Shown: positions 6,001 to 40,676 of the stretch, piece by piece
Layout: every line of letters begins with the position of its first letter
Numbering within the stretch: the stretch's first letter is position 1
NCBI RefSeq assembly: GCF_022347565.1
Contig: NZ_JAKRGH010000025.1
Span: 1-64,000, forward strand
From: Vibrio sp. Of7-15
GTDB taxonomy: Bacteria; Pseudomonadota; Gammaproteobacteria; Enterobacterales; Vibrionaceae
Direction of reading: 5' to 3'
Length of the DNA stretch: 64,000 bases
The notes under the pieces: generated by a model
What the model saw: only the letters and a program-made list of their open reading frames with translations
What the model was told of the DNA's origin: nothing
Databases searched by the model: none
Program-made: the position numbers and the translations under genes

Positions 6001-7038
6001 CTATTCCACTACGTATACATACCACAGTACCTCATTACGTTGTTCTATCTTGATTTGAATTCCCGTCATTTGCTCAATCACCTTCGCATTGGTGATGGTG
6101 TGTAAGCTAGGTTGGGTGGTTGTGAAACTACCGCTTCCTGCCAGCGCGATCAGCAATAACAATTGATCCGCTAAATGTTCTTCGACAGCCGCTTGAGAAT
6201 GAAGGAATTTATTCACTCGACCCGCCGCTCGTTTTGCTACTCTTTCGGCAGAGACTCCCAACTCGCCAACGACTTCAAACACATTACGATGAAAACTACT
6301 TTGAATGCTTAATTGAAAACTGTTACCAGGCCCTGGGCTTACAACATCTTGCACTTGGCTTGTGGCACCTTGCCAATTCAAGATGCTCTGAGCAGTGCGT
6401 ATTTCGCGTCGCCCAATACTCTCAGGGAGTGAGCAGATCAAAGCATGAAGGGAACAATTATGCAGATCTTGAGCAAAACCACTCCCCGATTCTAACAAAT
6501 GAACTGGCCTTAGCTTTTCAGTTGGCTCAATACCAAGTCGCCACTTACCGCCACCAGCAGGGTAAAATCCAAAGCGTATCGTTTTTATGTCACATTTACC
6601 CCCCATATGCCTCAATATGGGCAGATACGACTGCTCTAAAAAACTTAACGAAGGCGACATGCCATTATGGGTTCCCCCTTCAAAGGTGACCGTCGATTTT
6701 TCTTTAGCCAAAGCCAACACAGGTAAGATAGTCTGACAAACTAGCACCGTACTGCCCGCCGTGCCAATGGCAAAATGAAAATGACCTGCTTTTACTCGGC
6801 CGGGAGAAAATCGAATGCGTGTAGATCCAAGCTCTACTCCTTCTGTTGTAGCACCACAAATCTCTTGAGCCGCCAACACCGACGTTAGATGCTGACGCAA
6901 GAGCCCTGGTTTTTTTCTTTTTGATCTAAGGTTAATTAATTCAATATTTGTCTGAGTAAGAATGGATAGTGTCAGTGCTGTTCTAAGTATCTGACCGCCA
7001 CCTTCCCCTTGAGAACCATCAATCACTAAATAAGACAT
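6001..7038 (-). CDS. rtcA: RNA 3'-terminal phosphate cyclase
   Basis: N-terminal DGSQGEGGGQILRTALTLS is the RtcA signature. Length is 345 aa, and it is the last gene of an operon with rtcB. Confidence 0.9.
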   Translation of the reverse strand: MSYLVIDGSQGEGGGQILRTALTLSILTQTNIELINLRSKRKKPGLLRQHLTSVLAAQEICGATTEGVELGSTRIRFSPGRVKAGHFHFAIGTAGSTVLVCQTILPVLALAKEKSTVTFEGGTHNGMSPSLSFLEQSYLPILRHMGGKCDIKTIRFGFYPAGGGKWRLGIEPTEKLRPVHLLESGSGFAQDLHNCSLHALICSLPESIGRREIRTAQSILNWQGATSQVQDVVSPGPGNSFQLSIQSSFHRNVFEVVGELGVSAERVAKRAAGRVNKFLHSQAAVEEHLADQLLLLIALAGSGSFTTTQPSLHTITNAKVIEQMTGIQIKIEQRNEVLWYVYVVE

Positions 7039-7056
7039 GCTTCTGCCCTTTGTTGT

Positions 7057-8280
7057 TTAACCTTTCACACACACCACTTGTTTTAAGGTGTGCACCACCT
7101 CCACCAAGTCTTTTTGGGCGTCCATCACCTTCTCAATGTCTTTATACGCATGAGGGATCTCATCAATCACTGAAGCGTCTTTTCTGCACTCGACACCAGC
7201 CGTAGCTTTTACCTGATCATCAATGTTATACACCTTTTTGGCCTGAGTACGAGACATCACTCGGCCTGCCCCATGGCTACAACTGTTAAAACTATCAGGA
7301 TTTCCTAATCCGCGGACAATAAACGATCGCGCCCCCATACTACCTGGAATAATGCCTAACTCACCTTTTTCAGCGCGCACCGCTCCTTTGCGGGTAACAT
7401 AACACTCTTTGCCAAAATGCTTTTCCCGCGAAATGTAGTTATGGTGACAATTCACCGCCAACTCAGCGGTGGAGAACTCGACCGGCAGCTGTTTCCTAAG
7501 TGCAGAAATGGCATTAAACATCATAATTTCACGGTTTTTAGCGGCAAAATCTTGTGCCCACTCTACCGCTTCAACGTAATCTTCAAAATACTCGCTTCCT
7601 TCTTCAAGGTAAGCCAAATCCATATCAGGTAAGTTCATCTGATGGCGCTGCATTTCTTTTTTAGCCAGCTCAATAAAATAAGTGCCAATTCGGTTTCCTA
7701 CTCCTCGGCTTCCTGAGTGCAACATGATCCACACGGCATCATTTTCATCTAAACACAGCTCTAAGAAGTGATTGCCCGTTCCCATTGTGCCTAGGTGCTT
7801 CACATGATTGCTTTTTTTGATGGCTGGATGTTTCGCGCATATTTTCTCAAAGCGAGCTTCTAACTTCAGCCATTCCTTCGCGACAACCTCGGGAACATTG
7901 TGCCATGCGCCCCTGTCTGCTCTTCCTCGCCCACTCGTTCTCCCATGAGGCACCGCAGCTTCAAAAGCGTGTCTAATCGCTGATAGGTTATCGGGTAATT
8001 GACTTGCCATTAGTGTTGTTTTGGTTGCGACCATACCACAGCCAATATCTACCCCGACTGCCGCAGGAATAACAGCATCAACCGATGGGATCACACTGCC
8101 AATAGTCGCCCCTTTCCCCAAATGCACATCAGGCATCACCGCAATATGAGAATGCACCAAAGGCATCTTCGCAATATTAGTTAACTGCTGCTGTGCTTTT
8201 TCATCAAACGGCACGCCTTTTGTCCATGATTTGATGGTTGCGTGCCCTTTTTTTTCAATAACATCATAATTTTTACACAT
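7057..8280 (-). CDS. rtcB: RNA-splicing ligase RtcB
   Basis: A 407-aa protein with RtcB hallmarks: HSGSRGVGN, NCHHNY and metal-binding His/Cys. It is 18 bp upstream of rtcA. Confidence 0.9.
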   Translation of the reverse strand: MCKNYDVIEKKGHATIKSWTKGVPFDEKAQQQLTNIAKMPLVHSHIAVMPDVHLGKGATIGSVIPSVDAVIPAAVGVDIGCGMVATKTTLMASQLPDNLSAIRHAFEAAVPHGRTSGRGRADRGAWHNVPEVVAKEWLKLEARFEKICAKHPAIKKSNHVKHLGTMGTGNHFLELCLDENDAVWIMLHSGSRGVGNRIGTYFIELAKKEMQRHQMNLPDMDLAYLEEGSEYFEDYVEAVEWAQDFAAKNREIMMFNAISALRKQLPVEFSTAELAVNCHHNYISREKHFGKECYVTRKGAVRAEKGELGIIPGSMGARSFIVRGLGNPDSFNSCSHGAGRVMSRTQAKKVYNIDDQVKATAGVECRKDASVIDEIPHAYKDIEKVMDAQKDLVEVVHTLKQVVCVKG

Positions 8281-19153: not shown

Positions 19154-19588
19154 TCATCCCGAAAAAGTGTATTCATAAAAGTCGGTTAATTCATGCTTGG
19201 GATTTTTACTCAAAAACCGCCAACCGCATTTTCTATAATGATTCAGTGCGCGTTCATTACTTCGACTTACCGACAAAATGACTCCTTGGCAACCTCTCGC
19301 CCGCAGTTGTGCCTCAATATAAGGCAAAATTGATGAGGCAACCCCAGTCCCTCGATAGTCAGGCACCACATAAACTAAGTGAACGTAGCCGTAATCAGGT
19401 TTAAACGAAAAGGTCTTAAACTCTAATTGACCGACTATACGGTCATGGTGCCAAATATGAACATAAAACCATTCAGGAGAGCCCATCCGCGTTGTGATTT
19501 TATCTTGATAACCAATAACACTTTGCTCGTACCCTTCCAGTGTACCGAAACTGCAAAAATACGAGTCTTTTCTAAACTCATAACACAT
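19154..19588 (-). CDS. GNAT family N-acetyltransferase
   Basis: Acetyl-CoA-binding motif RGTGVASSIL...GCQGVILSV. Length is 144 aa. Confidence 0.8.
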   Translation of the reverse strand: MCYEFRKDSYFCSFGTLEGYEQSVIGYQDKITTRMGSPEWFYVHIWHHDRIVGQLEFKTFSFKPDYGYVHLVYVVPDYRGTGVASSILPYIEAQLRARGCQGVILSVSRSNERALNHYRKCGWRFLSKNPKHELTDFYEYTFSG

Positions 19589-19645
19589 TTAAAAATGCTG
19601 TTCGGTATCGATATCTTTAAATGTAACGTCCATGTTTACCTTTAT

Positions 19646-20179
19646 TTAATAATGCAATTCACCACGGTAACACTCATAATGCTTTACCTTTCGCTCTACA
19701 CCAGAAGTATACGCAGTGACCTCCGAGATATACTGGAACCCTGACTTTATCATCACCGCACCAGATTGGGGGTTATGAAGTAAATGCCGGGCGTACAACA
19801 TGGGAAGATTGAGGGTTGTAAAAGCAAAATGCACCAAGGCCTGGCTGGCTTCTGTACAATACCCCTTACCCCAATAAGGAACGCCTAACCAATACCCCAG
19901 ATTACCATCCGTCTGAGTCATTTCCGTTAAGCTAATGGTGCCTATCAAGACACTGTCTTCTTTTCTTTCAATTGCAAATACGACGGCTTGGCGAGCAAAC
20001 CATAACGTTTGATGGGTCTCAATCCACGCCTCTGCCATGCCATCTTCATAGGGGTGAGGGATATTAGCCGTCATTTCGGCAATAAGCGTATGACCCGCTA
20101 ATGTCTGTACCTGTTTGGCATCTTCAAGTGTAAACGGCCTTAATCGTAATCTTTCTGTTTCAATCGTGGGCTGTTGCAT
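19646..20179 (-). CDS. GNAT family N-acetyltransferase (RimJ/RimL-like)
   Basis: GYWLGVPYWGKGYCTEASQALVHFAF is the motif A/B region. Length is 177 aa. Confidence 0.8.
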   Translation of the reverse strand: MQQPTIETERLRLRPFTLEDAKQVQTLAGHTLIAEMTANIPHPYEDGMAEAWIETHQTLWFARQAVVFAIERKEDSVLIGTISLTEMTQTDGNLGYWLGVPYWGKGYCTEASQALVHFAFTTLNLPMLYARHLLHNPQSGAVMIKSGFQYISEVTAYTSGVERKVKHYECYRGELHY

Positions 20180-20193
20180 CTATTCATTTCCCT

Positions 20194-20697
20194 CTACTCA
20201 AAATGACGTAAATCACACGTTAATTGCAACCTATCTTTATGTTGAATACCGTTTTCAAAAATAGGATCTTGGTAATGTTCCAAAAAGTAGTTTTTCACAA
20301 CGGACTCTACCCGAAAGCCTTGTCGCTGATAAAAAGCCAACTGATGGCCAAATGTCCCTGTACCCAGCTCCACAGTTACAATTCCTCGACTTTTCAATGT
20401 TTTTAGAGTGAATCTTAATAACTGAGCACCAATCCCTTTGCTTTGTAACGCTGGAAGAACCGCAATGTTCGCCAACTCCACTGTGGTATGAGAAAGTGGA
20501 CAAATAAGGCAAACACCGATCACACATTGATTTTCTATGGTGGCAAAACACCACGATTTATTAAGGTAACGTTGCACACTACATACCGATGGGTCGGCTT
20601 CTAACAATAAAGCCATTGGTACTTGTTCTGGTTCTATTTCAGTGAAAACCAAACTATCCCTCTCATACTTCATCCAGTTTTTTATCGTAGCTGGCAA
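20194..20697 (-). CDS. GNAT family N-acetyltransferase
   Basis: ALQSKGIGAQLLRFTLKTLKSRGIVTVELGT is the Q/RxxGxG/A motif. Length is 167 aa. Confidence 0.75.
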   Translation of the reverse strand: MPATIKNWMKYERDSLVFTEIEPEQVPMALLLEADPSVCSVQRYLNKSWCFATIENQCVIGVCLICPLSHTTVELANIAVLPALQSKGIGAQLLRFTLKTLKSRGIVTVELGTGTFGHQLAFYQRQGFRVESVVKNYFLEHYQDPIFENGIQHKDRLQLTCDLRHFE

Positions 20698-22228: not shown

Positions 22229-22256
22229 AAAAAGCCGACTCAGTGCCGGCTTTTGG
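22229..22256. terminator. Hairpin terminator after the membrane-protein gene
   Basis: AAGCCG-N8-CGGCTT, followed on the minus strand by TTTTTTATT. Confidence 0.5.
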
Positions 22257-22324
22257 TTAATTGAATTCGTGATGCACAGGATAGAACACCTTTTATTATT
22301 CTACCCATGCTCAATGTGTCTAAA

Positions 22325-23110
22325 TTACTGCTCGACTTTGCTTATTTTCCCTGTCCCAACAGCCATCTGTTTTTCTTCTTCAGTATAAGGGCGGCATGAC
22401 ACGTCATAGACTTTTTGATACCACTGAAAGTACTTAAACAATGAGCGTAAGTTTCTAAAATAAACACCATAGCCTTTTGCATAACATGCCCCATCCTGTT
22501 GAGGGATATTCGCAAAAACATCTTCTTCAGGGTAATAAAGAGAGGGAAAAAAGTGGCTGGCCTCTATTTTATAATACTTACCGTTATCCGCTTGAGTACT
22601 GCAAGGTAAAGAGGTACAGCCCGTAAATTGATACTGTTCACCAGCTTCAATTTCTTGCTTACCCGTTGTATACACTAGCTCTTCAAATTGGGTACCATAA
22701 AAGTAACTGGCGATGACAGCAAAGTAGCCCGCAATGACTACACCACTGACACAACCTCCTCTTATACCCAAACGTCGAGAAGAAAAACGAAGTTCATTGT
22801 CTTCCTTATTACTCCCTTCTGGTACAGGCTCAAAAGCCAACCAAATTACAGCGGCTTTAAGCCAACGAAATACTCGATTACGCTCGCTAAAAACATCCTT
22901 TAGCCACAAAAAGGGGCGTAATAATACATCACGAATGGACGCAAAAAAGCGGAGCACACCAGCAATCGCAGTAACCAAAAATGAGGCGTTTTTATGTACT
23001 GGCTCAGGAGGCGGGGAGTTGTCGGCTACCGCTTGCTGAGCACGACGTAGCAGCTCATCTCGATCTAGATTAGTCTCATTCTCTTGCTTCATGGTGTGCC
23101 CTTCTTTCAT
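22325..23110 (-). CDS. Hypothetical integral membrane protein, last gene of the ClpB-like cluster
   Basis: Hydrophobic helices (SFLVTAIAGVLRFFASI, AVIWLAFEPV, VSGVVIAGYFAVIASYFYG) and a Cys-rich C-terminal soluble part. It is 21 bp downstream of the AAA+ gene. Confidence 0.5.
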   Translation of the reverse strand: MKEGHTMKQENETNLDRDELLRRAQQAVADNSPPPEPVHKNASFLVTAIAGVLRFFASIRDVLLRPFLWLKDVFSERNRVFRWLKAAVIWLAFEPVPEGSNKEDNELRFSSRRLGIRGGCVSGVVIAGYFAVIASYFYGTQFEELVYTTGKQEIEAGEQYQFTGCTSLPCSTQADNGKYYKIEASHFFPSLYYPEEDVFANIPQQDGACYAKGYGVYFRNLRSLFKYFQWYQKVYDVSCRPYTEEEKQMAVGTGKISKVEQ

Positions 23111-23131
23111 TTTTCAAGTTCTAACGACGAA

Positions 23132-25375
23132 TTAAGCCGGATCTAATACTGACGGTACGCCGGGAGCAGAAATATCCAGCTCTTTTGTGGTAGTGTCGTA
23201 CTTAATCACCATTTCTCCTTCCGCATTTGGCGTTTGAAGAAGCGTATTCGCCACCGCAGGCTTAATGCGTGTGGTGATGTAACCAGGCAAACCACGCGCA
23301 CCAATCGCTGGCACATAGATATCTTGACAAATATCGGCCAATGTTTGGTCGCTAATATTAATGTGAATGTTTTTACCACCAGCCTGAATTTGATGATTCA
23401 GTTTTTCAATTTCACGGCGAGCAATTTTTTCCACCACCGCAAGATCCAAGCGATTGAAACACACAATATTTTCACGACCGTTAAAGCGGTTCAAGAACTC
23501 AGGGCGATACACTTCATCCAGCTCTTCCATTGTTGCACTCACGGCTTCATCAAAGGTGAGGCTTTCATCTAGGAAGTTAGGTTGACCAATGTTAGTTGTC
23601 ATCAGGATAATGGCTTCACCGAATGATACCGTTAAACCACGGTTATCGGTTAAGCGACCATCATCAAGCACTTGAAGTAGTACGTTAAATACATCTGGAT
23701 GTGCTTTTTCCATTTCATCAAAAAGAATGATAACACGAGGGTTTGCACGCATTGAGTTGGTTAAAATTCCTCCCGCTTCATAACCTTCATAACCAGGAGG
23801 AGCACCGATCAGCTTCGCCACACCGTGTTTTTCCATGTACTCGGACATATCAAATCTAAGCAGGGCACGCTCATCATCAAACAAAGCCGCCGCCAGCGCT
23901 TTTGCTAATTCAGTTTTACCCGTACCCGATGGGCCTAAAAACATGAAAGAAGCTTGTGGTTTTTCAGGATCTTTTAAGCCTACACGCGCAACTCGTACCG
24001 CGTCTGCTAATTGATTCACGGCATGATCTTGACCATACACGCGAGAATTTAATACGGAATGTATTTTAAGTAATTTACTGCGTTCGTCTTGATTCAACTT
24101 ATCTGTTGCAATACCTGAAATGGCACTGAACTTCGATAATACGCTGTCTGTATCTAAAGACAAATTTGCATTAACTTGCGCTGTCAGCTGATCAAAGGCC
24201 GCTTTATTTTCTTGTACATAGGCTTCCATTTTCGTAATGTCAGCACGAATTTTACTGATCGCTTCCGACTCAAATCCAGCGGCTAATGAAGCAGAAAATG
24301 AACGGAATTGGTTAACGGTTTCTGGCTCAGCTTTTTTCTCGCCTTTTTGTTGTTCGATTTCTTGCTGTTTTAGCAACGCTTCTTCAAGCTCCAGCAGCCC
24401 TTCTTCACCATCACGTTGATTTTTATAACACTTACGCAATTGTTGTTGAACCGCTTGCCATTGCTCATGTTGCTGGCTAATTGCCTGAATAAGCTCATTC
24501 TTTTTCGCTAATAGCTGCTCAGCAGGTACATGCGTAAGTTCGCTGGTTTCATCTCCAGCTAAGGCGCTTTCAATCTGGCTCAGCTGTTGGTTTAATTCGG
24601 TTAATGCCGCTGGTGAAGCATGAGCTTGCTGACGGTAAGTTGTCAACGCACGGTCAAGTAAGTTCAAAGTACGCTCAGGCTGAGCACGACTTAAACTCAT
24701 TTCTCGTACACGATACTTATTGGTTAAATCGATAGCGGTATTAATCGCTTCTGCACTGATTTTGATTTTATGGTGCTGCTCTAATCGTTTGCTGGTGGTA
24801 GTAATGATGTCAAACAAAGAATCATCCGCCGGCTCTTTAATGTCGAGCATGGTGTAATATTCACGCATATCTGAGTGACATTTCAACACGACTTCTAAAT
24901 CTTCATCACGTGTTTCAAAAATAACCTGAAACTTACCTAAACGAACGTCTCGTACTAAGGCATTGATAAAGTTGGTGCAACCATTATTACGGGCTGCTTC
25001 AATAAAATCACGCGCGTCTTCAACAATCAAAATCGCTTCCGCTGAGCGCCCTAGCGTTCGCAATAGCTTTTGAAAGTGTTCATTCATGCTGTTTGGATCG
25101 CCCGATGAAAACAAACCATCGGTATCTAACCAGTAAAAACGTTTATTAATAATATCGAAAGACGCATGCTGGTCGCTTTTGCTGGCTTGCAAGCCTAAAC
25201 ACAACGCAGAGCAGCCAACACCGCCTGTACCAACCAATAAAACACTGTTGGCTTGCTTACGCATTAAAATACCCGTCAGCTGCTTTAATTCTTTATCACG
25301 GCCAACCAGTTGAAAATCTGTATGTTGGGCTAGCTTATCACGCCCACGAATTAAGTAGTTATGTTGTTGTGGCAT
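23132..25375 (-). CDS. ClpB/ClpV-like double-AAA+ ATPase with a degenerate D1 Walker A and a long coiled-coil middle domain
   Basis: D2 is intact: GPSGTGKT (Walker A), IILFDEMEKAH (Walker B), MTTNIG (sensor 1) and the VYGQDHAV signature. D1 reads LLVGTGGVGCSAL, with Cys where the Walker A Lys normally sits. About 200 aa of coiled coil separate the modules. Length is 747 aa. Confidence 0.75.
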   Translation of the reverse strand: MPQQHNYLIRGRDKLAQHTDFQLVGRDKELKQLTGILMRKQANSVLLVGTGGVGCSALCLGLQASKSDQHASFDIINKRFYWLDTDGLFSSGDPNSMNEHFQKLLRTLGRSAEAILIVEDARDFIEAARNNGCTNFINALVRDVRLGKFQVIFETRDEDLEVVLKCHSDMREYYTMLDIKEPADDSLFDIITTTSKRLEQHHKIKISAEAINTAIDLTNKYRVREMSLSRAQPERTLNLLDRALTTYRQQAHASPAALTELNQQLSQIESALAGDETSELTHVPAEQLLAKKNELIQAISQQHEQWQAVQQQLRKCYKNQRDGEEGLLELEEALLKQQEIEQQKGEKKAEPETVNQFRSFSASLAAGFESEAISKIRADITKMEAYVQENKAAFDQLTAQVNANLSLDTDSVLSKFSAISGIATDKLNQDERSKLLKIHSVLNSRVYGQDHAVNQLADAVRVARVGLKDPEKPQASFMFLGPSGTGKTELAKALAAALFDDERALLRFDMSEYMEKHGVAKLIGAPPGYEGYEAGGILTNSMRANPRVIILFDEMEKAHPDVFNVLLQVLDDGRLTDNRGLTVSFGEAIILMTTNIGQPNFLDESLTFDEAVSATMEELDEVYRPEFLNRFNGRENIVCFNRLDLAVVEKIARREIEKLNHQIQAGGKNIHINISDQTLADICQDIYVPAIGARGLPGYITTRIKPAVANTLLQTPNAEGEMVIKYDTTTKELDISAPGVPSVLDPA

Positions 25376-25450
25376 AAGGGATCTCTTTAAACAAACAAAG
25401 TAGAAAATAGCCCCAGAAAGGAGCTATTTTTAGGGAGCTAAACAGTTAGA

Positions 25451-27142
25451 TTAAAAGCCAAATGGGCTCTTTTCTGCTTGCTTTTGTGGTTGTTCCGCTT
25501 GTTTTTCATCATCAAACTTTCCAGCCGTAACGTCAGCGGCAACCGAGATAGAGTCTTGTACGCTCTCTTGTACGTCTTTTGCTGTGCTCTCTAAACGGCT
25601 TAATAGATCTTTCGTTTCAAGCAGACCATCGCGGGTAATGCCTGTCGCTGTTTCAATCACTTGGCCATATTGCTCTAAATCTTCAAGTGCTTTGCTCAGC
25701 TCATTGTTTTGCTCTTGTGTACCAAGGGCAACACGGATCACTTCTTTTTGGCCTAAGTTAGAAGTGGTTTGCTGCATACGCTCAAGGGACATACGCGCCA
25801 TTTCTGACGATTCGCCCAATGCCGCAGAAGACACTGCTTGCAGTACCGTGCTCAGCTGATCCGCAACGCCAGCGACGCCCGAGCTGTGCAGTTGGCGTGT
25901 TTTAGAAATTTGCTGATCATTGGCATCCTGCATCGACTTGATTCGGTGGCCTGAGCCCGTTAGCTCCGCCAGTACTGACGTCGTATCAATCGCCGAGTTA
26001 CCTAACGATTTAATGTGGTTTTCCAGATCACGCTTGTGACGCTCACGAGTCATACGCTCGATGTCACCTTCTGACTCTCCGCCTGGTTGCAGCGTGTCAC
26101 GTAATGCTTCGTTTTGAGCATCGGCTTCTTTAGTCGCATCGTTAATGATGGCGTACATTTCACGCATGCTGAAGTTTGCCTCATTAAGGTTCTCGATCTG
26201 ACCATTCATCATGTCAAAATGCTCAGAAACCGTACCCACTCGAACTTCCGTTGTTTCAATAAAGTCTTGCGCCGCCGTGACTAAAGCTTTTTGTCTGTCT
26301 TTGTGCTCGTTAGAAGAGATATCAAGCAGCTCGCGTAGTTTAGCTTTTTGAGCCGCATACTCGCTCAGGCTGGACTCTTTTGTTGGGTGTTGCGGAGTAT
26401 CTGCGATAGTTTGAGTTAACTGGGCTAACTCTTGGGTGTGTTTGTCCATTTCCATTTGTAAAAGCGCAATCTGTTCGCGCGATTTACGGGTTACATTACC
26501 AAAACCAAACCATGACTTATCTTCACCCAGTTTAGTAATGTACTTTTTCTTCTCATCCATCAGTGATGTTAGAGAAGATAGTTGCTCTTCTTGCTCGGCG
26601 CGCAGTGCAGCCAACTCAGCTTCGGCCTCTTTATCTTCAGCGATTTCTCGGAATACATCAAACGTCACGCCATTCATACGTAGGGTATATACCGCGTCAA
26701 CGATGTCGGTTAGTGGAGAGATCTTATCTTCAAATGACATCAACGCAGTATTGATGTCATCGTAAACGGTTTTTAGCTCAGAGAATGCACCAGTATCCGT
26801 TAGGGAAATGATTTCTTGTGCCATGCGCTTACGTTCATGCTGTAAGAATTCTTTGAATTGGTTGAATTCTTCCAGTTTCTCTTTAGCTTCGTCTTTGTTA
26901 TTACTGAACGTCAATGCTTTTGAAACGGCATTCTTCTTGTCCGTTGGCGTTAAGCTTGGATCTAAAATAATCCCATAAAATGTGTTCGCCTGAATATTGG
27001 CAAACTTTTGACTGCTCTCTTGCTGCGCTCTGGTCTCTGATTTTGAATTACTAGAGCGACGCTTCGACGTATTGACTGCCTGCTCTAACACGTTATTCAT
27101 TTCATTGGACTGTTTTCTTTTTTTACTCGAATTAGATGACAT
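25451..27142 (-). CDS. Hypothetical coiled-coil protein (possibly TelA-like), first gene of the cluster
   Basis: A 563-aa protein dominated by heptad-like acidic/Gln-rich segments with no TM and no nucleotide-binding motifs. The TelA/KlaA-like assignment is only an impression. Confidence 0.4.
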   Translation of the reverse strand: MSSNSSKKRKQSNEMNNVLEQAVNTSKRRSSNSKSETRAQQESSQKFANIQANTFYGIILDPSLTPTDKKNAVSKALTFSNNKDEAKEKLEEFNQFKEFLQHERKRMAQEIISLTDTGAFSELKTVYDDINTALMSFEDKISPLTDIVDAVYTLRMNGVTFDVFREIAEDKEAEAELAALRAEQEEQLSSLTSLMDEKKKYITKLGEDKSWFGFGNVTRKSREQIALLQMEMDKHTQELAQLTQTIADTPQHPTKESSLSEYAAQKAKLRELLDISSNEHKDRQKALVTAAQDFIETTEVRVGTVSEHFDMMNGQIENLNEANFSMREMYAIINDATKEADAQNEALRDTLQPGGESEGDIERMTRERHKRDLENHIKSLGNSAIDTTSVLAELTGSGHRIKSMQDANDQQISKTRQLHSSGVAGVADQLSTVLQAVSSAALGESSEMARMSLERMQQTTSNLGQKEVIRVALGTQEQNNELSKALEDLEQYGQVIETATGITRDGLLETKDLLSRLESTAKDVQESVQDSISVAADVTAGKFDDEKQAEQPQKQAEKSPFGF

Positions 27143-27969
27143 TTATTTTCCTAATCAGCAATGCTGAAGTTCAATATAGGGAATAGGTTCTAAATCCATG
27201 ACAGCCAGCTTATTGATGAGACTATAATTGCCAAGGATGTTTCAAATAGTAACAGGTAAAAAGGGTTGCAATCTCACCGAATAACTAGACAAAACGAGCT
27301 TTTTATATCGATAAATAAAAACAGCCCCTTAATAAACGAATTCTTAACGGAAAACTCCCTGTTTATGTAGCGTTTCACCTGTTGTAACCACTATTACAGG
27401 TTTACCTACTTGTGTAAATCTGGGGAATATTAAAGGCTGTCTGCTATCACAAATTTGATATGGGGATAAGATTTTAACCATTATTTTGACAGGATATTTA
27501 GTTTTATTGCCTTAAAAATAAAGAATGAAAGAAGAATAACACTAGGTGAAACAAAAAAACCAAAAGTCCATGTACATCAATAATATGACTAAAACCCACC
27601 AATAATGACAAAATAGTCATTAACGAGCTATTCTCAGTGGTCATCAGCTAGGCTAAAAACAAACTTTTTACCTTATTAAGCTCAGAAATGGAAAGTGAAT
27701 GACTATTTACATAAATGATTTAAAGTCAATTTAATGACATTAAAATTAGTAAGAAATATTGCTGCAAGCATGGAGAGTGGTAGCAACCATCGTTTTAAAT
27801 GAAAGAAAGAGAATTTCTGCAAAGAGAAAAATACATGGGAAAGTAATAAGCCATTTATTATGCAGAAGGACATGCATAAACGGTGTAAATAGCAGGCCAA
27901 GAGTAAACTTATTCTAAATACTTTAAGGCAGAGCCATGTAACAATGACTCTGCACAAATCTCTGACAAA

Positions 27970-28947
27970 TTAGAACTGATAAATCATACCAACACCAACT
28001 GATTTGTCACTTTCATTAAAAAAGGCGATATTAGAATTTCTTTTTTCGTACCCTAACGTGCCGACAAAAGACCAATCATCCCAGCCCAACATGTCTTCAT
28101 ATTGGTAGGTCAAAGTCGCATCATAGCTATTATCTGAACGCTCTTTACTAAATACAGGATGAGCAGCATCATAGTTACGATGAGCATACCCCATTGATAG
28201 CGAGATCTGATGGTTCTCGACAAATGTATGGAAATTCACCCCAACACCAACCTTATGGAACGCACTGGCTTTACCTTGGGCATCATAACGAAGGTAAGAT
28301 AGGCTAGGCTCTACATAAATGGCTTCAGCAGCTTCAAAAATAGCACTGCCTTCCACGGCATAAGATTTAGCATCCCGTTTTAATAACGCTTGCTGCGACT
28401 GAGATAAGTTCAGCCCAGACTGTTCCTTGTCTATCTCGGTATCTGCAAAGGCAGCTTCCAGTGATAATGGCATACCGAAGATATTTTCGGCCATCATCCT
28501 TATTCCATGTGTGCTCGCTTTAGATTTGGTCCGCAGCTTTTTATTTATATATGGGTCACTGTATACCTCACCACTGCCTATGGCAGGCAAATACGCAAAG
28601 CCAACAACCGTCCCATTATTAAGCTCTGTTTTATAACCTAGTTGGAACAACGATACCCCTTCAATGAGATCGTCTTCTGCAAGACCAGCATACACCTGAT
28701 GATCGTGCTCTTGGCCAAACGTATAATGCAGTTCACCAATCGGGCCCAAGCTACTTCCAGACGATTTATCATTTCCGGGCCCTGAGTGGTTTTCATTGCT
28801 CGGATCCATGTTAGATACACTACTAGAGTAACTCGTCACCACCCCAATATAACCACCAAAACCCTCATCAATGGCTAAATCAGCGGCCGCAGACACAGAA
28901 AAAAGAGAAGTAGAAGCCGCCATTAGCATCATAGGTTTAATATTCAT
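27970..28947 (-). CDS. Outer-membrane beta-barrel protein
   Basis: Signal peptide MNIKPMMLMAASTSLFSVSAAADLA, alternating amphipathic beta-strands, and a C-terminal aromatic residue (…MIYQF). Confidence 0.65.
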   Translation of the reverse strand: MNIKPMMLMAASTSLFSVSAAADLAIDEGFGGYIGVVTSYSSSVSNMDPSNENHSGPGNDKSSGSSLGPIGELHYTFGQEHDHQVYAGLAEDDLIEGVSLFQLGYKTELNNGTVVGFAYLPAIGSGEVYSDPYINKKLRTKSKASTHGIRMMAENIFGMPLSLEAAFADTEIDKEQSGLNLSQSQQALLKRDAKSYAVEGSAIFEAAEAIYVEPSLSYLRYDAQGKASAFHKVGVGVNFHTFVENHQISLSMGYAHRNYDAAHPVFSKERSDNSYDATLTYQYEDMLGWDDWSFVGTLGYEKRNSNIAFFNESDKSVGVGMIYQF

Positions 28948-28965
28948 AATAATTCCAATATTTTA

Positions 28966-29982
28966 TTAATTAGGTAAAAACTCAGTGACGAGGTTGTGAT
29001 CCAGTAGCTCATTTTTTTTCATAATATGAATATCATCAAAATCGGCAGCATTAATGGTGTAGAAATAAAAATCACTGCCATTAATAAGGATCTCATTAAA
29101 ATAAGTAATTTGTGACCAGTGGGCTTTATCTGATTCATTCAATAAATTGGCAGGTTTATCCCCTTTACAGCACCAAGAATGCACACCCAACTTGGCACCG
29201 CTTTGGTATTGGCGCACCTTTCCCGCAGCAAAAAGATCCACACCGCCAGAATACGCTTCACCTGTGGAAGAAATGTAAGTATTTAAGCCCGCATTTCTAA
29301 TCAGCCTACCTGTGTGCATATTAATGTCGTCATTCAACGAGCCCGGAACAAAATCAAACTCCAACGTTTTCACTTCTGGGTGCTGCTCAATCAGATCCTT
29401 AATTTGAATATAACTTTTTGTTCCTAATACCCCCGACAACACGGCTTTATTACCTTTCACTTTTAGCTCTGAATTACCTGCCTCAATAAAGCTGTCGTTA
29501 AACACGACTTTAACCCATTTCGAACTTTCCTCCTTTTGATCGTACAGATAGCCGTTAAATATCTGGTTACCCGCTTGATCTTCAAAGATCTTTATTCCCT
29601 TTTTTTTGCTATAAAAAGTAAGCGGCAGATTATGAAAGGAAGAGTCGTTGCTAGGTATGGTAAACACCACGTTTTCAGCTCTTGACTCATTCGTATTAAC
29701 TTCAAAGCGAATTGATTTATCATTGCACTCAGCGGTCAAATCCAGCATATCATCGCCAAAATCTAACTCGGTCAATGACAATGGGCAGGATTCACCGTCT
29801 ACCACCAACCTATTTCGGGCAAACTGTTTTTCAAATAACTTGATATAGCTCGATACTTTATCTGGCGCAATATGGTGTGTTTCAGGAACGCTGCTATTGC
29901 CAAATGCTAAGCCGTGAATAGTGGTTCCGAGTGCCGCAACAATAAAACCAGCCACTTTATTTTTATTTATAGGTAAAAGCAT
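28966..29982 (-). CDS. Hypothetical secreted protein
   Basis: A signal peptide (VAGFIVAALGTTIHGLAFG) on a 338-aa protein. Confidence 0.5.
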   Translation of the reverse strand: MLLPINKNKVAGFIVAALGTTIHGLAFGNSSVPETHHIAPDKVSSYIKLFEKQFARNRLVVDGESCPLSLTELDFGDDMLDLTAECNDKSIRFEVNTNESRAENVVFTIPSNDSSFHNLPLTFYSKKKGIKIFEDQAGNQIFNGYLYDQKEESSKWVKVVFNDSFIEAGNSELKVKGNKAVLSGVLGTKSYIQIKDLIEQHPEVKTLEFDFVPGSLNDDINMHTGRLIRNAGLNTYISSTGEAYSGGVDLFAAGKVRQYQSGAKLGVHSWCCKGDKPANLLNESDKAHWSQITYFNEILINGSDFYFYTINAADFDDIHIMKKNELLDHNLVTEFLPN

Positions 29983-30248: not shown

Positions 30249-31379
30249 TTACTTCTTTTTGATTCTTCGCATTGAGGCAAAGATAAATAAAGAAAGGAAT
30301 GATAATAAACCTGTCGACCCTCCTTCTGTTGAGAATAAGCTTTGGTTGGTTGAACTGTTATCACCAACAGTAACCACATCAGAGCCTATTTCATTTTTAA
30401 CAACAAAAGGATCGATATTAAACGTGTATTGATTAGCTCCAGTAAGTTGATTCACTGTAATGCCTGTTTTACTGGAAATCCAATTTAGATAATTCGATAC
30501 CTGAGTGTAAACTCCTGGATGTTCGCCTACACCGCACCCATTACTCGTGCCAAAGCTTACTACCCCCACCAAGCGCATTCCTTTATCGATATCAGCTGTA
30601 TTACTTGGGTCACGCCACACTAAAGGACCACCACTGTCTCCCTGACAACTGCTTGTGTTTGAATGTTGCACAGGTTTTGCCGCACATATCATTAAATCGT
30701 CAGGTAAACTAATTCCCCAAGTAGTTTCACACGCGTTATCTGGTACTCCAATCAGTAAAGCTTGCCTTAAACGACTGGACGTATCGTCTTCAGTTGCAGA
30801 TGAAAGAGGCACTGTATTACCCCAGCCGGAAACCAATAAGGTAGCTTCATTATCTTGATTGTAATTGTAATTATGACCACTCCATTGATTGGCAAAAGCC
30901 TTATCCATACTTTGCTGGCCTTCACTATCAAGTAGAGTAATAGGCGTTCCAGATTTAAGGTCGCCATTGATCTTAATAAGCGCAATGTCATTTACAACCG
31001 TAACTGGAGAGTAACTTTCGTGAATAATTAACTCACTCACCGCATGAGATACACCTTTGCCTTTAAGAGTACTGCCAGAGTAAATGGTAACGGTTCTTGA
31101 GGTATCAACGTAACTCTGGTTTTTATTGGCTAGGCAATGTGCGGCAGTCAGTACCCAGTTTGCATTGAGAATAATTCCACCACACAAGTAAGTCACGTTC
31201 ACACTTTCTCCATTGACTTGGAGCGTTTTTTTGCCTTCTACTTGCACTTGCCATGGAATAGCGTTTGTTTGGCTTATATTACCATCGACAACGTATGGCG
31301 ATATTCCATCTTGAGCAAACGCATTGAGTGAAACCACACACGCTAAAGGAAGAGAAAGAGGTAAGTATTTCGTTTTCAT
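30249..31379 (-). CDS. Secreted trypsin-like (S1) serine protease with a GlyGly-CTERM sorting signal (VesB-like)
   Basis: Catalytic triad motifs TAAHC, DIALIKI and GDSGGPL. The C-terminus GGSTGLLSFLSLFIFASMRRIKKK is GG, then a TM, then a basic tail. The likely start is Met at 31379, giving signal peptide MKTKYLPLSLPLACVVSLNAFA. Confidence 0.85.
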   Translation of the reverse strand: MKTKYLPLSLPLACVVSLNAFAQDGISPYVVDGNISQTNAIPWQVQVEGKKTLQVNGESVNVTYLCGGIILNANWVLTAAHCLANKNQSYVDTSRTVTIYSGSTLKGKGVSHAVSELIIHESYSPVTVVNDIALIKINGDLKSGTPITLLDSEGQQSMDKAFANQWSGHNYNYNQDNEATLLVSGWGNTVPLSSATEDDTSSRLRQALLIGVPDNACETTWGISLPDDLMICAAKPVQHSNTSSCQGDSGGPLVWRDPSNTADIDKGMRLVGVVSFGTSNGCGVGEHPGVYTQVSNYLNWISSKTGITVNQLTGANQYTFNIDPFVVKNEIGSDVVTVGDNSSTNQSLFSTEGGSTGLLSFLSLFIFASMRRIKKK

Positions 31380-31679
31380 CAAAGCTTTTTTCCTGCTTAT
31401 TAATTGCATATTTATAGTTATAATCAAGCAGGGATTATAATTTAACCTTTGATTTTATAAAGCCTTTTATCAGGAATCATTTCAATAAAGTAAGAACGTG
31501 ATTTGCCCCAAGTGCCGCGTATACCCTTCTTTTGGACACGAGGAATTAAGAAAGACTACGAAGAAGGTGAAAGGGAGCTATAACAATATGATAGGTATAA
31601 TATAAATCATTACATTAATGAAAAAGCCGGAGGCATAGAAAAGACTACCTCCGGAATATCTACACTATTGAAAACTTTA

Positions 31680-32801
31680 CTACTTTTTTACTCTTCTAAG
31701 AGAAGCAAGAATAAGCAGAGACAACATGGAGAATACGCCAGTAGAGCCACCTGATGTAGTGACTGTTCTATTGCTAATCGTTGTACCCGTGCCAGTATCC
31801 ACCTCAGTAGCTACTTCATTTTTAACCGCAAAAGGATCCGCGTAAAATACATGTTTATTGGCATCAGTAAGTTCAGAATTCAGCCCCGTGTTAGATCTAA
31901 TCCAGTCAAGGTAACTTGATACCTGAGTATAAACTCCAGGAGTGCTAGATCCACATCCATTACCATAACTCACTACCCCAGCTAAGCGCATACCTTTATC
32001 ACTATCAGAGACATGAGACGGATCACGCCACACTAAAGGCCCGCCACTATCACCTTGACAGCTGTCGGTTTTTGAATTTTTCTGGGGCTTCATCGCACAC
32101 ATAGAGAGAGTAGTATCAGGATCATACTGAAGGCCTCTGTATATAGCTCTCAGCTCCGCCCAGCTAGTATCACAGACAGTATCAGTCACTCCCACCAGCA
32201 AGGCTTGTCTTAAATTATTACTGGATATAGCTTGATCTTTAGTATCCCCCCAACCAGAAACCAGCAAAGTTGCTGCGTTATCTTGATTGTATTCATAATC
32301 AAAGCCACTCCACTGGTTACGAAAAGCGTCATCCATGCTTTGCTGCCCTTGGCTATCAAGCAGAGTGATAGGAGTACCAGATTTTAGGACACCATCTATC
32401 TTGATAAGAGCAATATCATTCAAGCCTGTTTTATTGGACGTTGAGTAACCAGAATGGATAATAGTTTCACTTACAGCATGGGCATCCCCTCCGTCTTTTA
32501 CATTACTGCCTGAATAGATGGTGATGTTATTATCAGTAATACGCTGTTCATCACTGTCGTAGAGGCAATGTGCCGCTGTAAGAACCCAATTATTATTAAG
32601 GATGGTACCACCACAAGTGTAAGTGTAGATATAAAAGCCTTGAATAGATTGACTTTTAATTTGCACTTGCCATGGAATAGAGCCCGTTTGGCTTGTATTA
32701 CCATCTACAATATAAGGCGAGATTCCATCTTGAGCAAAAGCATTGAAAGAAAACGCACACGCCAAAGAGAGGGGTAGAGTTAAAGCTCTAAATTCCATCA
32801 A
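31680..32801 (-). CDS. Secreted trypsin-like (S1) serine protease with a GlyGly-CTERM sorting signal, paralog of the preceding gene
   Basis: TAAHC, DIALIKI and GDSGGPL are present. The C-terminus reads GGSTGVFSMLSLLILASLRRVKK. The N-terminal region IPWQVQ is shared with the neighbouring protease. Confidence 0.85.
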   Translation of the reverse strand: MMEFRALTLPLSLACAFSFNAFAQDGISPYIVDGNTSQTGSIPWQVQIKSQSIQGFYIYTYTCGGTILNNNWVLTAAHCLYDSDEQRITDNNITIYSGSNVKDGGDAHAVSETIIHSGYSTSNKTGLNDIALIKIDGVLKSGTPITLLDSQGQQSMDDAFRNQWSGFDYEYNQDNAATLLVSGWGDTKDQAISSNNLRQALLVGVTDTVCDTSWAELRAIYRGLQYDPDTTLSMCAMKPQKNSKTDSCQGDSGGPLVWRDPSHVSDSDKGMRLAGVVSYGNGCGSSTPGVYTQVSSYLDWIRSNTGLNSELTDANKHVFYADPFAVKNEVATEVDTGTGTTISNRTVTTSGGSTGVFSMLSLLILASLRRVKK

Positions 32802-36522: not shown

Positions 36523-37035
36523 CTAAGAAAGCAGTGCCTTTGCTAATTCAACCTCATGAAGAATGTAATCATCAAGTTGCTCAGAGTTAGTTTCTCCGGT
36601 GGCTTGATAACCTTGAGAGGAATAAAAACGAAGAGCGGATTCATTCGATTCTAGCGAAGATAATACAACCTTTTCATAATCGAGTCTGACGAGTTCCGAC
36701 TCACAACGCGCAAGTAACAATGAACCAATACCTTTTCTATAAAAATCAGGGCGTACATACAAGGTGCTCACTTTTGCTATTTTTCCCGTATCGTCACCTC
36801 GAAAATCATCAAAACACATAAAACCGACAATGTCATGATCATACGCCGCCACAAACACATGTGCTAATTGCTCGCCCACCATTCTAGTCCACAATTTATG
36901 TCGGCGCTCATAAGAAAACCGAGCAATGTAGCTTTCTGGCATCAATCCCTTATACGCAACAGCCCACGAATTAACATGTAAATTTGCTATGGCACTGACA
37001 TCTTCCATGACAGCTTTTCTGACGTTGTAGCTCAT
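36523..37035 (-). CDS. GNAT family N-acetyltransferase
   Basis: RKGIGSLLLARCESELVRLDYEKVVLSS shows the GNAT fold. Length is 170 aa. Confidence 0.8.
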   Translation of the reverse strand: MSYNVRKAVMEDVSAIANLHVNSWAVAYKGLMPESYIARFSYERRHKLWTRMVGEQLAHVFVAAYDHDIVGFMCFDDFRGDDTGKIAKVSTLYVRPDFYRKGIGSLLLARCESELVRLDYEKVVLSSLESNESALRFYSSQGYQATGETNSEQLDDYILHEVELAKALLS

Positions 37036-39506: not shown

Positions 39507-40676
39507 ATGGATTTAAGACACTGTTCGGGATTCACCTTACCACTCCAAAAAGGGCCATTTCAGAATAATGGAGCAACGCCTTGGTATTGCGAACTAGGGA
39601 TTGGCTCTCCTGCGCAAAAACTCAAAATGTGCTTTGACACTGGCAGTAACTTCAACTGGGTAACATCCAATCTCTGCTCAGATGATGGCTGCAAGCATTA
39701 TGCAAATGCTCGCTTTAATTTAAATTTGTCTTCAACGTTTGAATGGATAAACCAAGACGTACAATCGGTCAATTTTGGGCCATGGGGCACAATGCAAGTA
39801 GAAACAGGAAGAGATCGTTTATGCCTCCCCTACCATCACGGCCCCTCAATTGTTAGTGATCTCTTTTTAGCCTCTGAATATTCTGGCACTCAGTTTGAAG
39901 AACTCGACTGGGATGGTGGGATCGGCCTGCCAAGCTCTCAAGACATAACAGCGATTGCTCCAAGTGCTTCTTATCCTTTTAGGGGGCACCACACGAATAC
40001 CAATTCAAATGAAGACTTTAATTTTTTCTTAACACTACTAAAAATGGGGCTGGTAGGCACTTCTACCCCTTATATTTCAGTACAAACAGAGCCACTGTGC
40101 GATCACCCAACAGGCTATATTGGGTTTGGCACATTGGATAGGTCTTACGCCTCTTCTCTTGAATATTTGTTTCTGCCTTGGTCGTGTTACCAACAAGAGG
40201 CCAGTTATTTATGGACAACAGCCAACACAACCGTAAAAGTCAATGGCAACACCATTGGCACCAACATGTTTTTTGCCCTAGATACTGGTTCATCGCAATT
40301 TAAAGGGGACAACTCAGTGTTAACCCAAGTGTATAACTTAACAAAAAACGATGGTCCCCCTGTCTCTATTATGCTCTCAGATGAAAATGGCATTGAATAT
40401 GGTGAATTAAACATCACTAGAGATATATACCAATGCAAAATAGAGGCAGGAGAGAAAAAAGGCAAAGTAGTTTCACAATTCCAAGGACTACCTGGGGCAG
40501 ACGACATGCTACTGGTTGGCTCTGTGTTAATGGATCACCTTTACACTGTGTACGAATATGAAGTGATCTCCAACAATGATATTCGCCCTAAAGGCGTCTG
40601 GATTTTCAATAAGCCGAATGGCCCCAAAATTATAAAAAACAGACAAACTTCCACTGCCTCATTATTCTCTCGTTAA
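39507..40676 (+). CDS. Pepsin-like (family A1) aspartic protease homologue, no signal peptide
   Basis: Two catalytic DTGS motifs arranged as in bilobal pepsins: YCELGIGSPAQKLKMCFDTGSNFNWV in the first lobe (compare pepsin Y.G.I.IGTPPQ.F.V.FDTGSS..WV) and FFALDTGSSQF in the second. Length is 389 aa, with a hydrophilic N-terminus. Confidence 0.8.
   Translation: MDLRHCSGFTLPLQKGPFQNNGATPWYCELGIGSPAQKLKMCFDTGSNFNWVTSNLCSDDGCKHYANARFNLNLSSTFEWINQDVQSVNFGPWGTMQVETGRDRLCLPYHHGPSIVSDLFLASEYSGTQFEELDWDGGIGLPSSQDITAIAPSASYPFRGHHTNTNSNEDFNFFLTLLKMGLVGTSTPYISVQTEPLCDHPTGYIGFGTLDRSYASSLEYLFLPWSCYQQEASYLWTTANTTVKVNGNTIGTNMFFALDTGSSQFKGDNSVLTQVYNLTKNDGPPVSIMLSDENGIEYGELNITRDIYQCKIEAGEKKGKVVSQFQGLPGADDMLLVGSVLMDHLYTVYEYEVISNNDIRPKGVWIFNKPNGPKIIKNRQTSTASLFSR

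Follow-up and report, generated by a model that had tools for sequence, protein, structure and literature searches.

We analysed a window of 64,000 nucleotides (nt) from Vibrio sp. Of7-15 (contig NZ_JAKRGH010000025.1, positions 1 to 64,000) and, within it, a module of three genes, here called A, B and C, which according to the open reading frame (ORF) calls are arranged like an operon on the minus strand, between positions 22325 and 27142 (Table 1). Judging from its sequence, the AAA+ protein encoded by gene B represents a newly recognised subfamily of the Hsp100 proteins, with a first ATPase ring (D1) that is silent yet conserved, an intact second ring (D2), and neither the N-domain nor the ClpP loop. 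Its two neighbours encode proteins of orphan families, one of them all-helical and the other with a predicted membrane anchor. A sequence-only reading of this DNA had described the genes as co-oriented and tightly spaced, and so they are, with 75 nt between A and B and 21 or 39 nt between B and C. The start of C is more probably the second ATG, at 23092, which gives a protein of 255 amino acids (aa); a Shine-Dalgarno sequence, GAAGGG, lies 7 nt upstream of it, and the NCBI start call is identical. The product of B is 100% identical to a protein recorded as "AAA family ATPase" of Vibrio sp. Of7-15.

Table 1. Features of the A-B-C module and its borders, with coordinates in the window
Feature	Coordinates	Strand	Description
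Gene A	25451..27142	-	ORF, 563 aa; acidic, all-helical; orphan family
A aa 207-218, EDKSWFGFGNVT	26489..26524	-	Aromatic, Gly-rich loop of WFGFG type joining two long helices; conserved
A aa 419-455, HSSGVAGVADQLSTVLQAVSSAALGESSEMARMSL	25778..25888	-	Helix of small residues; highest conservation in A
A C-terminal PFGF motif	25454..25465	-	Follows the variable acidic linker; candidate docking/engagement peptide
Gene B	23132..25375	-	ORF, 747 aa; Hsp100/ClpB-like double-ring AAA+ protein
B D1 P-loop GTGGVGCS, aa 49-56	25208..25231	-	Cys55 aligns with the Walker A Lys of ClpC GEPGVGKT
B middle domain, approx. aa 276-410	24146..24550	-	Insertion of ClpB length, ~135 aa; lowest conservation within B
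B D2 Walker A GPSGTGKT, aa 481-488	23912..23935	-	Remaining D2 motor set intact
Gene C	22325..23110	-	ORF, 255-261 aa; one transmembrane helix, predicted bitopic; orphan family
C transmembrane helix, approx. aa 114-140	22691..22771	-	Kyte-Doolittle peak 1.78; AlphaFold2 helix 111-139
C periplasmic domain, aa 141-255	22346..22690	-	Predicted; beta-rich, OB-fold-like
Stem-loop and U-rich tract, A-B spacer	25404..25430	-	Terminator-like; minimum free energy -17.1 kcal/mol, z = -2.3 against shuffles
Intrinsic terminator	22230..22254	-	71 nt past the C stop; 10-bp stem with 5 GC pairs, then TTTTTTATT
AT-rich intergenic region, 827 bp	27143..27969	-	Upstream of A; presumed promoter/regulatory region

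The affiliation of B was given by Pfam, where it matched AAA_2 (1.4e-55, 188.3 bits), AAA_lid_9 (43.8) and ClpB_D2-small (38.9), all of them above the gathering scores. Against the NCBIfam models of the named families the scores were far under the cut-offs, 433.1 vs 1232.1 for ClpB (TIGR03346), 391 vs 993 for ClpA and 358.5 vs 884.95 for ClpV/TssH (TIGR03345), in agreement with the earlier statement that this was not an ordinary clpB, clpV or clpA. No Clp_N match was found in B by Pfam and, because the ClpB model could be aligned only from its position 175 (residue 23 of the query), we consider that the N-domain is missing. The four motifs on which the sequence-only reading had based its description, GTGGVGCS in D1 and GPSGTGKT, DEMEKAH and TTNIG in D2, are all present, the last two at aa 553-559 and 593-597. 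The replacement of the invariant Lys by Cys in the D1 P-loop was also borne out, since in the alignment with ClpC the residue that faces the Walker A Lys is Cys55, and the ring is degenerate in other positions as well: in the residue-level alignment the D1 Walker B reads ILIVED in B vs ILFIDE in ClpC, and the pore loop LFSSGD-PNSMNE vs AGTKYRGEFE, with the pore-loop Tyr missing.

This condition is not a peculiarity of the Vibrio protein. Among the 120 best homologues of B, the position of the D1 Walker A Lys is occupied by Cys in 109 and by Lys in none; because Lys is missing in all of these closest members, its absence is, as far as the alignment tells, a hallmark of the family. The motifs that take the place of the canonical ones (GxGGVGC[ST], LDxDGLFSSGD and [ED]DxRDF) are conserved in the same set, in which 120/120 lack the canonical D1 Walker A, Walker B and pore-loop Tyr; the mean conservation there is 0.83 for D2, 0.74 for D1 and 0.47 for the middle domain. 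Since the replacement motifs are conserved and D1 is above the middle domain, D1 would be a ring selected in a non-catalytic form and not a decaying one. From the established function of the Walker A Lys, ATP hydrolysis in D1 is predicted to be lost. The D2 motifs, for their part, are 95-100% conserved in the 120 members, including the Walker A, the GAPPGYEGY pore loop, the Walker B DEMEKAH, the TTN of sensor-1, the RPEFLNR Arg finger and the GAR of sensor-2. The long middle domain that had been noticed before corresponds to an insertion of ClpB length, spanned by a single continuous phmmer alignment with Thermus thermophilus ClpB (1qvr; query 22-723). In the segment after the D2 sensor-1, B is gapped where Staphylococcus aureus ClpC has RFAGFGGSSDGQDYE, that is, the ClpP-docking loop of the IGF/L type, and B is predicted to be unable to feed ClpP.

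The protein encoded by gene A had been described as purely coiled-coil and acidic. Its acidity was confirmed (net charge -26; of its two disordered tails, the N-terminal one is basic and the C-terminal one acidic); as for the coiled coil, the AlphaFold2 model is rather that of an all-helical protein, with 12 helices and a predicted local distance difference test (pLDDT) score of 68.6. The conservation is too high for a generic coiled coil, because about 100 columns are invariant across phyla in an alignment of 33 sequences, with identities of 45-85%. No signal peptide was found in A, and its maximum hydropathy window is 1.02, with no segment of transmembrane grade. An aromatic motif, FAxIxxNxFYxI, is conserved just after the basic N-tail. 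In the loop at aa 207-218, F212 and G213 are nearly invariant and G215 is invariant; the model places there a short beta-bridge between the helices 160-207 and 219-248. In the helix at aa 419-455 almost all columns are invariant in the 33 sequences, which come from several phyla, and it is kept in the phage copies described below; as a monomer it is poorly modelled, with pLDDT under 50 for aa 439-453. At the C-terminal end, P560 and F561 are invariant in the same 33 sequences, and four viral homologues end in NAFGF, ASFKI, SPFGN and SPFKL, thus keeping the Phe in 4/4 and the Pro in 2/4. A second, diverged copy of A, of 539 aa, was observed in Motilimonas eburnea (locus L009, 5005-6624), at a distance of 1.4 kb on the upstream side of the real A. 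The conserved central helix is retained in this copy, whereas the acidic tail and the PF motif are missing.

With respect to the origin of A, an exhaustive profile search over 1.84 billion representatives delimited a family of 347 representatives at E<=1e-3, and the best 150 matches were all of the same family, either full-length or fragments, with no bridge to a known family. A did not match Pfam, NCBIfam, PADLOC or PHROG, and Pfam searches with 33 family members (E<=1) gave nothing consistent; the profile search of the PDB produced no sequence relative, only low-scoring similarities to coiled coils such as Rad50 (E 0.58). The relatives suggested earlier could not be recovered by profile or fold searches: the TelA profile (PF05816) had no match at E<=1 in 33 members of the family, no sequence or fold match was found with PspA/IM30 (PF04012) or with the ESCRT-III protein Snf7 (PF03357), and an SMC-like head is missing, with neither a P-loop nor a match to SMC_N. 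In the fold search, ClyA, AhlB, AhlC and XaxB appeared among non-specific helical-bundle matches; the tip loop of A is short and its hydropathy does not exceed the value given above.

Gene C encodes a protein with about 110 residues, predicted to be cytoplasmic, before a single transmembrane helix, and a beta-rich domain after it, predicted to be periplasmic and similar to an oligonucleotide/oligosaccharide-binding (OB) fold. Over 71 homologues the hydropathy peak of the helix has a median of 2.04, and the flanking Lys plus Arg residues amount to 3.8 on the N-terminal side vs 1.1 on the C-terminal side; on account of these positive-inside flanks, C is predicted to be a bitopic protein of the inner membrane with its N-terminus inside and its C-terminus outside. 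The sequence-only reading had called this protein Cys-rich, a description that could not be maintained, since C holds only 5 Cys and some distant homologues have none, although four Cys of the C-terminal domain (Cys165, Cys170, Cys209 and Cys239) are invariant in an alignment of 32 sequences. The very high conservation of the OB-like domain argues for binding to a conserved ligand rather than to a fast-evolving one. As in the case of A, no match to C was found in Pfam, NCBIfam, PADLOC or PHROG, the Pfam search with 32 members of the family (E<=1) gave nothing consistent, and the profile search of the PDB returned nothing meaningful; each of the 186 C homologues is labelled "hypothetical".

The three genes travel together. 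Look-ups of B homologues from different lineages (Pokkaliibacter, Mameliella, Alcanivorax, a metagenome-assembled genome (MAG) of Verrucomicrobiota, and two metagenomic genomes) showed the order and strand of A-B-C kept in 6/6 (8 loci), with B flanked in all six by genes of the size of A and C, both without Pfam matches, and with unrelated outer flanks. A scan of a genome collection with the A profile gave 73 loci; B comes after A in every locus with enough sequence, and after one profile iteration a C homologue was found behind B in 73/73 loci where the C-terminal end of B was found. A fourth conserved gene was sought by clustering 3178 flanking ORFs, and none was detected. A-B-C is thus a self-contained, operon-like unit, universally linked in the loci with enough sequence, and the conservation of the trio as a unit, on which the earlier proposal depended, holds. 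Its representatives are found in Gammaproteobacteria (Motilimonas, Pokkaliibacter, Alcanivorax, Luteimonas, Woeseiaceae and Wenzhouxiangellaceae), in Alphaproteobacteria (Rhodobacteraceae, Maritalea, Dongia, Taklimakanibacter and Parvibaculaceae), in Verrucomicrobiota, and in many MAGs of Micavibrio, Pseudobdellovibrionaceae, Bdellovibrionales and Bradymonadales.

The closest relatives of the module are those of Motilimonas, with 81-87% protein identity, and the stretch shared with them is limited to 22276-27189. Because the similarity is restricted to this stretch and the flanks differ even from those of the 84%-identical Motilimonas copies, the module behaves, to judge from these comparisons, as a cassette. 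The presence of a Motilimonas-like module with unshared flanks fits a cassette that was acquired horizontally, or else a genus name, in Vibrio sp. Of7-15, that is imprecise. The 72,556 plasmids searched contained no copy. Additional genes accompany the module in some clades. In 12 Micavibrio-like loci (L056, at 6546-7364; L061-L066, L068, L070, L072, L073 and L081), an extra gene of ~274 aa is located upstream of A; its product, without a Pfam match, is helical in the N-terminal region and alpha/beta in the C-terminal part, and the gene is confined to the most divergent bacterial clade of the family. A short-chain dehydrogenase/reductase gene follows C in loci of the Taklimakanibacter type. 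An SPFH/Band_7 and NfeD pair lies directly upstream of the module in L046, L053 and L058 (about 6.1-7.9 kb, minus strand), loci of one clade of Wenzhouxiangellaceae type; this attribution was made from ORF positions.

The module could also be found in phages. By tblastn of isolated phage genomes, A was detected in the Agrobacterium jumbo phage Atu_ph07 (490 kb), which has the whole trio: A is AUZ95252 and ends in NAFGF; B is AUZ95251, labelled "ClpB protein", with the D1 P-loop GPGGVGCS; and C is AUZ95247 (E 9e-70 to the C profile). In the genome paper, gp492 was annotated as ClpB, a generic chaperone for which the clearance of aggregates was proposed (PMC6102473); this label is the sole mention that our literature search recovered, and no description of the trio was found. 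Two scans of IMG/VR added six viral contigs, of 88, 97, 120, 176, 247 and 608 kb, and all three genes are present in each of them, the D1 of B being again without the Lys. On the three viral contigs tested (3/3), neighbouring genes matched phage-specific PHROG families. Three small hypothetical genes (79, 147 and 249 aa) lie between B and C in Atu_ph07 (locus L082, 11722-13174), and in the viral contig L091 C is found ~1.1 kb downstream of B. Because C stands apart from B in both genomes, A-B is the tightest link of the trio. In a neighbour-joining tree, a rough distance tree with midpoint rooting, the viral A sequences form long, deep branches adjoining one alphaproteobacterial clade, so that by this tree they do not look like recent captures nested in host sequences.

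To explain these observations, we tentatively favour, with somewhat less than even confidence, a dedicated AAA+ system at the inner membrane, in which an unfoldase driven by D2 would remodel a membrane-tethered helical scaffold. B would be a hexameric translocase of the Hsp100 type, with the mechanical work done by the D2 ring alone, and the D1 ring would have become a conserved non-catalytic collar that may dock partners or hold nucleotide structurally. A would be elongated and all-helical, and would probably self-assemble; B would probably grip it by a disordered tail, either the basic N-tail or the acidic C-tail with its invariant Pro-Phe, and after this engagement would unfold or disassemble it. 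The cytoplasmic helices of C would tether A, B or both to the membrane, and its periplasmic OB-fold domain would bind a conserved component of the envelope. The net outcome would be that the inner membrane or the envelope is remodelled or maintained at the expense of ATP, which would be useful both for Gram-negative bacteria and for giant phages in long infections. In this scheme the role of A as client of B, that of C as tether and the cellular function are inferred. The sequence-only reading had spoken of a membrane-associated remodelling module; the membrane association stands by the topology statistics of C, and remodelling is our best guess. The trio would then constitute a client-specific Hsp100 system. 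A wider version has a fair chance, though well under even: a previously unrecognised ATP-driven machine for envelope or membrane remodelling, made up of a polymerising A, a ClpB-derived motor with a silent ring and an OB-fold anchor that senses the periplasm, which Gram-negative bacteria, the predatory lineages above all, would share and exchange with giant phages; the latter would use it to manage the host envelope during infection.

Several known systems offer a comparison. The ClpV-TssB/C pair is the case of an Hsp100 dedicated to the disassembly of one structural client, as in our working model for B acting on A; however, A is not homologous to TssB/C, there is no linked type VI secretion system (T6SS), and B lacks the client-binding N-domain and falls below the TssH cut-off. 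Vps4 with ESCRT-III, like the archaeal CdvA-CdvB-CdvC, combines a membrane adaptor, a helical polymer whose C-terminal peptide serves for docking, and an AAA+ disassembly motor, although B is a double-ring Hsp100 and Vps4 a single-ring protein with a MIT domain, and A has no match to Snf7 or PspA, so that this is an analogy only. In the Psp system, genes for a helical effector of the cytoplasm, for small bitopic sensors in the membrane and for an AAA+ protein lie together and serve in membrane maintenance, but PspF is a sigma-54 activator and not an unfoldase, and the module has neither a PspA_IM30 match nor a sigma-54 promoter. The pairing of an OB-fold membrane protein with a long-helix oligomer has its nearest conceptual analogue in NfeD with SPFH/flotillin proteins, and HflK/C, also of this kind, is associated with an AAA+ machine, FtsH. 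None of these analogies is backed by homology of A or C. A ring that does not hydrolyse ATP and is retained for a structural or regulatory role, as we propose for D1, is present in NSF (its D2), in ClpI and in the plant proteins SMXL/D53; in B, unlike these, the silent ring is D1, on a scaffold of the ClpB type, the change from Lys to Cys is family-wide, and the partners are others.

Some of the results weigh against the remodelling system that we favour. The interaction among A, B and C is inferred. A shows no detectable kinship with PspA, ESCRT-III, TelA, flotillin or any polymer-forming family; its AlphaFold2 model is only moderate, with a predicted template modelling score of 0.41, and A has no amphipathic or transmembrane segment that would prove membrane binding, its maximum hydropathy being 1.02. 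Furthermore, in the 400 nt upstream of A no consensus of sigma-54, sigma-32 or sigma-E was found in 65 loci, and there is accordingly no stress-type promoter that ties the module to envelope stress.

The sequence-only reading had left room for a defence function, and an explanation of this kind would be a conflict module against phages or between them, acting by abortive infection, in which C would sense a perturbation of the envelope and B would activate or release A, which would damage the membrane. The patchy spread across phyla, the condition of cassette with unrelated flanks even among close relatives, the AT-rich upstream region and the defence systems that phages are known to carry against their rivals would agree with it, as would the partial PADLOC matches of B to the ClpB-like DolB of Dodola (2e-21) and to PDC-M37B (8.5e-35). 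These proteins are ATPases that resemble ClpB-D2, as B does, but they have a single ring and ~375-520 aa; B matches them only over the generic D2, and A and C match no defence model, the models of DolA (DUF6414) and of the PDC-M37 partners included (best PADLOC E 0.068). We surveyed the two nearest ORFs on each side in 52 non-redundant loci with PADLOC and Pfam, and the 148 proteins did not contain a recurrent defence family: PADLOC gave one AbiE pair, one SoFic and one AriA-like protein, and six "mad2" matches that coincide with a similar number of neighbours with a generic methyltransferase domain and were taken as the same proteins, and the commonest Pfam family reached at most 5 of the 148. 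In the seven loci with precomputed Pfam annotation the neighbours were exclusively metabolic and regulatory. In addition, conservation as high as that of A and of the predicted periplasmic domain of C is unusual in conflict genes, and the module is absent from the plasmids searched. In view of these data the defence proposal was not sustained, and we regard a conflict module as unlikely.

It is quite unlikely, too, that A is an alpha-helical effector of the ClyA/XaxAB type, unfolded or primed by B and targeted to the envelope by C, with lysis or predation as its end. Such an effector could be recognised in the conserved aromatic tip loop, WFGFG, between long helices of A, and in the many loci that belong to MAGs of Micavibrio, Bdellovibrionales, Pseudobdellovibrionaceae and Bradymonadales and to lytic giant phages; however, A has neither a signal peptide nor a hydrophobic segment able to span the bilayer, no secretion genes are linked, and ordinary heterotrophs (Mameliella, Motilimonas and Pokkaliibacter, for example) carry the module as well. 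As regards general proteostasis, in ClpB/Hsp104 the Walker A Lys and the pore-loop Tyr of D1 are both needed for disaggregation, and B has neither of them. This speaks against B being an extra disaggregase of the ClpB type, with A and C as co-chaperone and adaptor in place of DnaK, which we consider very unlikely, even though the best named matches of B are ClpB and ClpC, its M-domain has the length of that of ClpB, and in the Atu_ph07 genome paper gp492 is named ClpB, with aggregate clearance as its proposed task (PMC6102473). The order D1, middle domain, D2 and D2-small is that of ClpB/Hsp104, with a D2 core ~60% identical that has all the catalytic and pore motifs and no ClpP-docking loop. 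The score of B is one third or so of the ClpB cut-off (433 vs 1232), and B lacks the N-domain and the DE of the D1 Walker B; no promoter of the sigma-32 type was seen upstream in the 65 loci; and two orphan proteins are invariably encoded with B, in contrast to the DnaK partnership of ClpB, so strict a coupling, to a membrane-bound protein among them, being unexpected for a general chaperone. Finally, B could be the ClpV/TssH of a T6SS encoded elsewhere, with A and C as unrelated neighbours. ClpV is the third-best NCBIfam match of B, but the score is 358 vs a cut-off of 885, and the N-domain, which in ClpV binds VipB, is missing; wherever B occurs, in the bacterial loci as in the phage genomes, A and C are found with it, and no T6SS genes were found in the annotated part of the window, nor were any recurrent in the 73 loci. 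We take this reading as largely refuted and scarcely credible.

The Hsp100 machines count among the AAA+ proteins that have been studied best. The interest of the present system resides, in our opinion, in that a large and ancient Hsp100 subfamily has silenced its first ring in one uniform way, by putting Cys in the place of the Walker A Lys, and is strictly coupled to two protein families that are annotated nowhere. Its solution would add a client-specific Hsp100 paradigm beside those of ClpV with the sheath and of ClpB with DnaK, would reveal the purpose of the silent D1 ring, and would give a function to two orphan families present in many Alpha- and Gammaproteobacteria, predatory bacteria and jumbo phages. 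The phage copies suggest a function on the host envelope or membrane that is worth carrying for giant phages, and Atu_ph07 on Agrobacterium tumefaciens C58 represents a genetically tractable entry point.

Regarding the signals for expression, the non-coding AT-rich DNA of about 830 bp that had been reported upstream of the module was found to measure 827 bp; the GC content of 27001-28000 is 0.337 vs about 0.40-0.46 in the surroundings, and the sole ORF inside the gap, of 84 aa and with a TTG start, is unsupported. The gap is not shared with the Motilimonas loci, where the similarity ends at 27189. Sigma-70-like sites in the window were weak and no better than chance, and a scan of the whole module region with Rfam gave no match. 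The hairpin in the A-B spacer may be a partial terminator or attenuator that sets the A:B ratio, lowering B and C relative to A. The terminator after C is the operon end, and it is the single canonical terminator 3' of C.

The neighbours of the module in the window include genes for a DUF2860 outer-membrane protein, two trypsin-like proteases, a two-component system, a GGDEF protein, GNATs and a DJ-1/PfpI protein. The earlier statement that no T6SS, chaperone or protease partners lie nearby holds for T6SS, ClpP and DnaK genes, none of which was seen among the annotated ORFs over ~10-13 kb on either side of the module. It needs to be corrected for the proteases, since two genes for secreted serine proteases of the trypsin family are located in tandem 3-5 kb upstream (30249-31427 and 31680-32801, minus strand; PF00089, ~1e-41 each), although they are not partners of the Clp type and are not kept beside the trio in other loci. 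The AT-rich gap is bordered by the gene of a DUF2860/SlipAM-like outer-membrane beta-barrel (27970-29982, minus strand; 8.7e-74), outside the conserved module and preceded by an ORF of 338 aa without a Pfam match. Four GNAT acetyltransferase genes were found within ~18 kb (19154-20697 and 36523-37035, minus strand), three of them consecutive and directly downstream of the module region; genes for DUF1330 and DJ-1/PfpI proteins accompany them, and the stretch appears to be rich in accessory genes. On the plus strand, an ORF of 389 aa (39507-40676) matches the eukaryotic-type, pepsin-like aspartyl proteases (PF00026, 1.7e-16), a family that is uncommon in bacteria.

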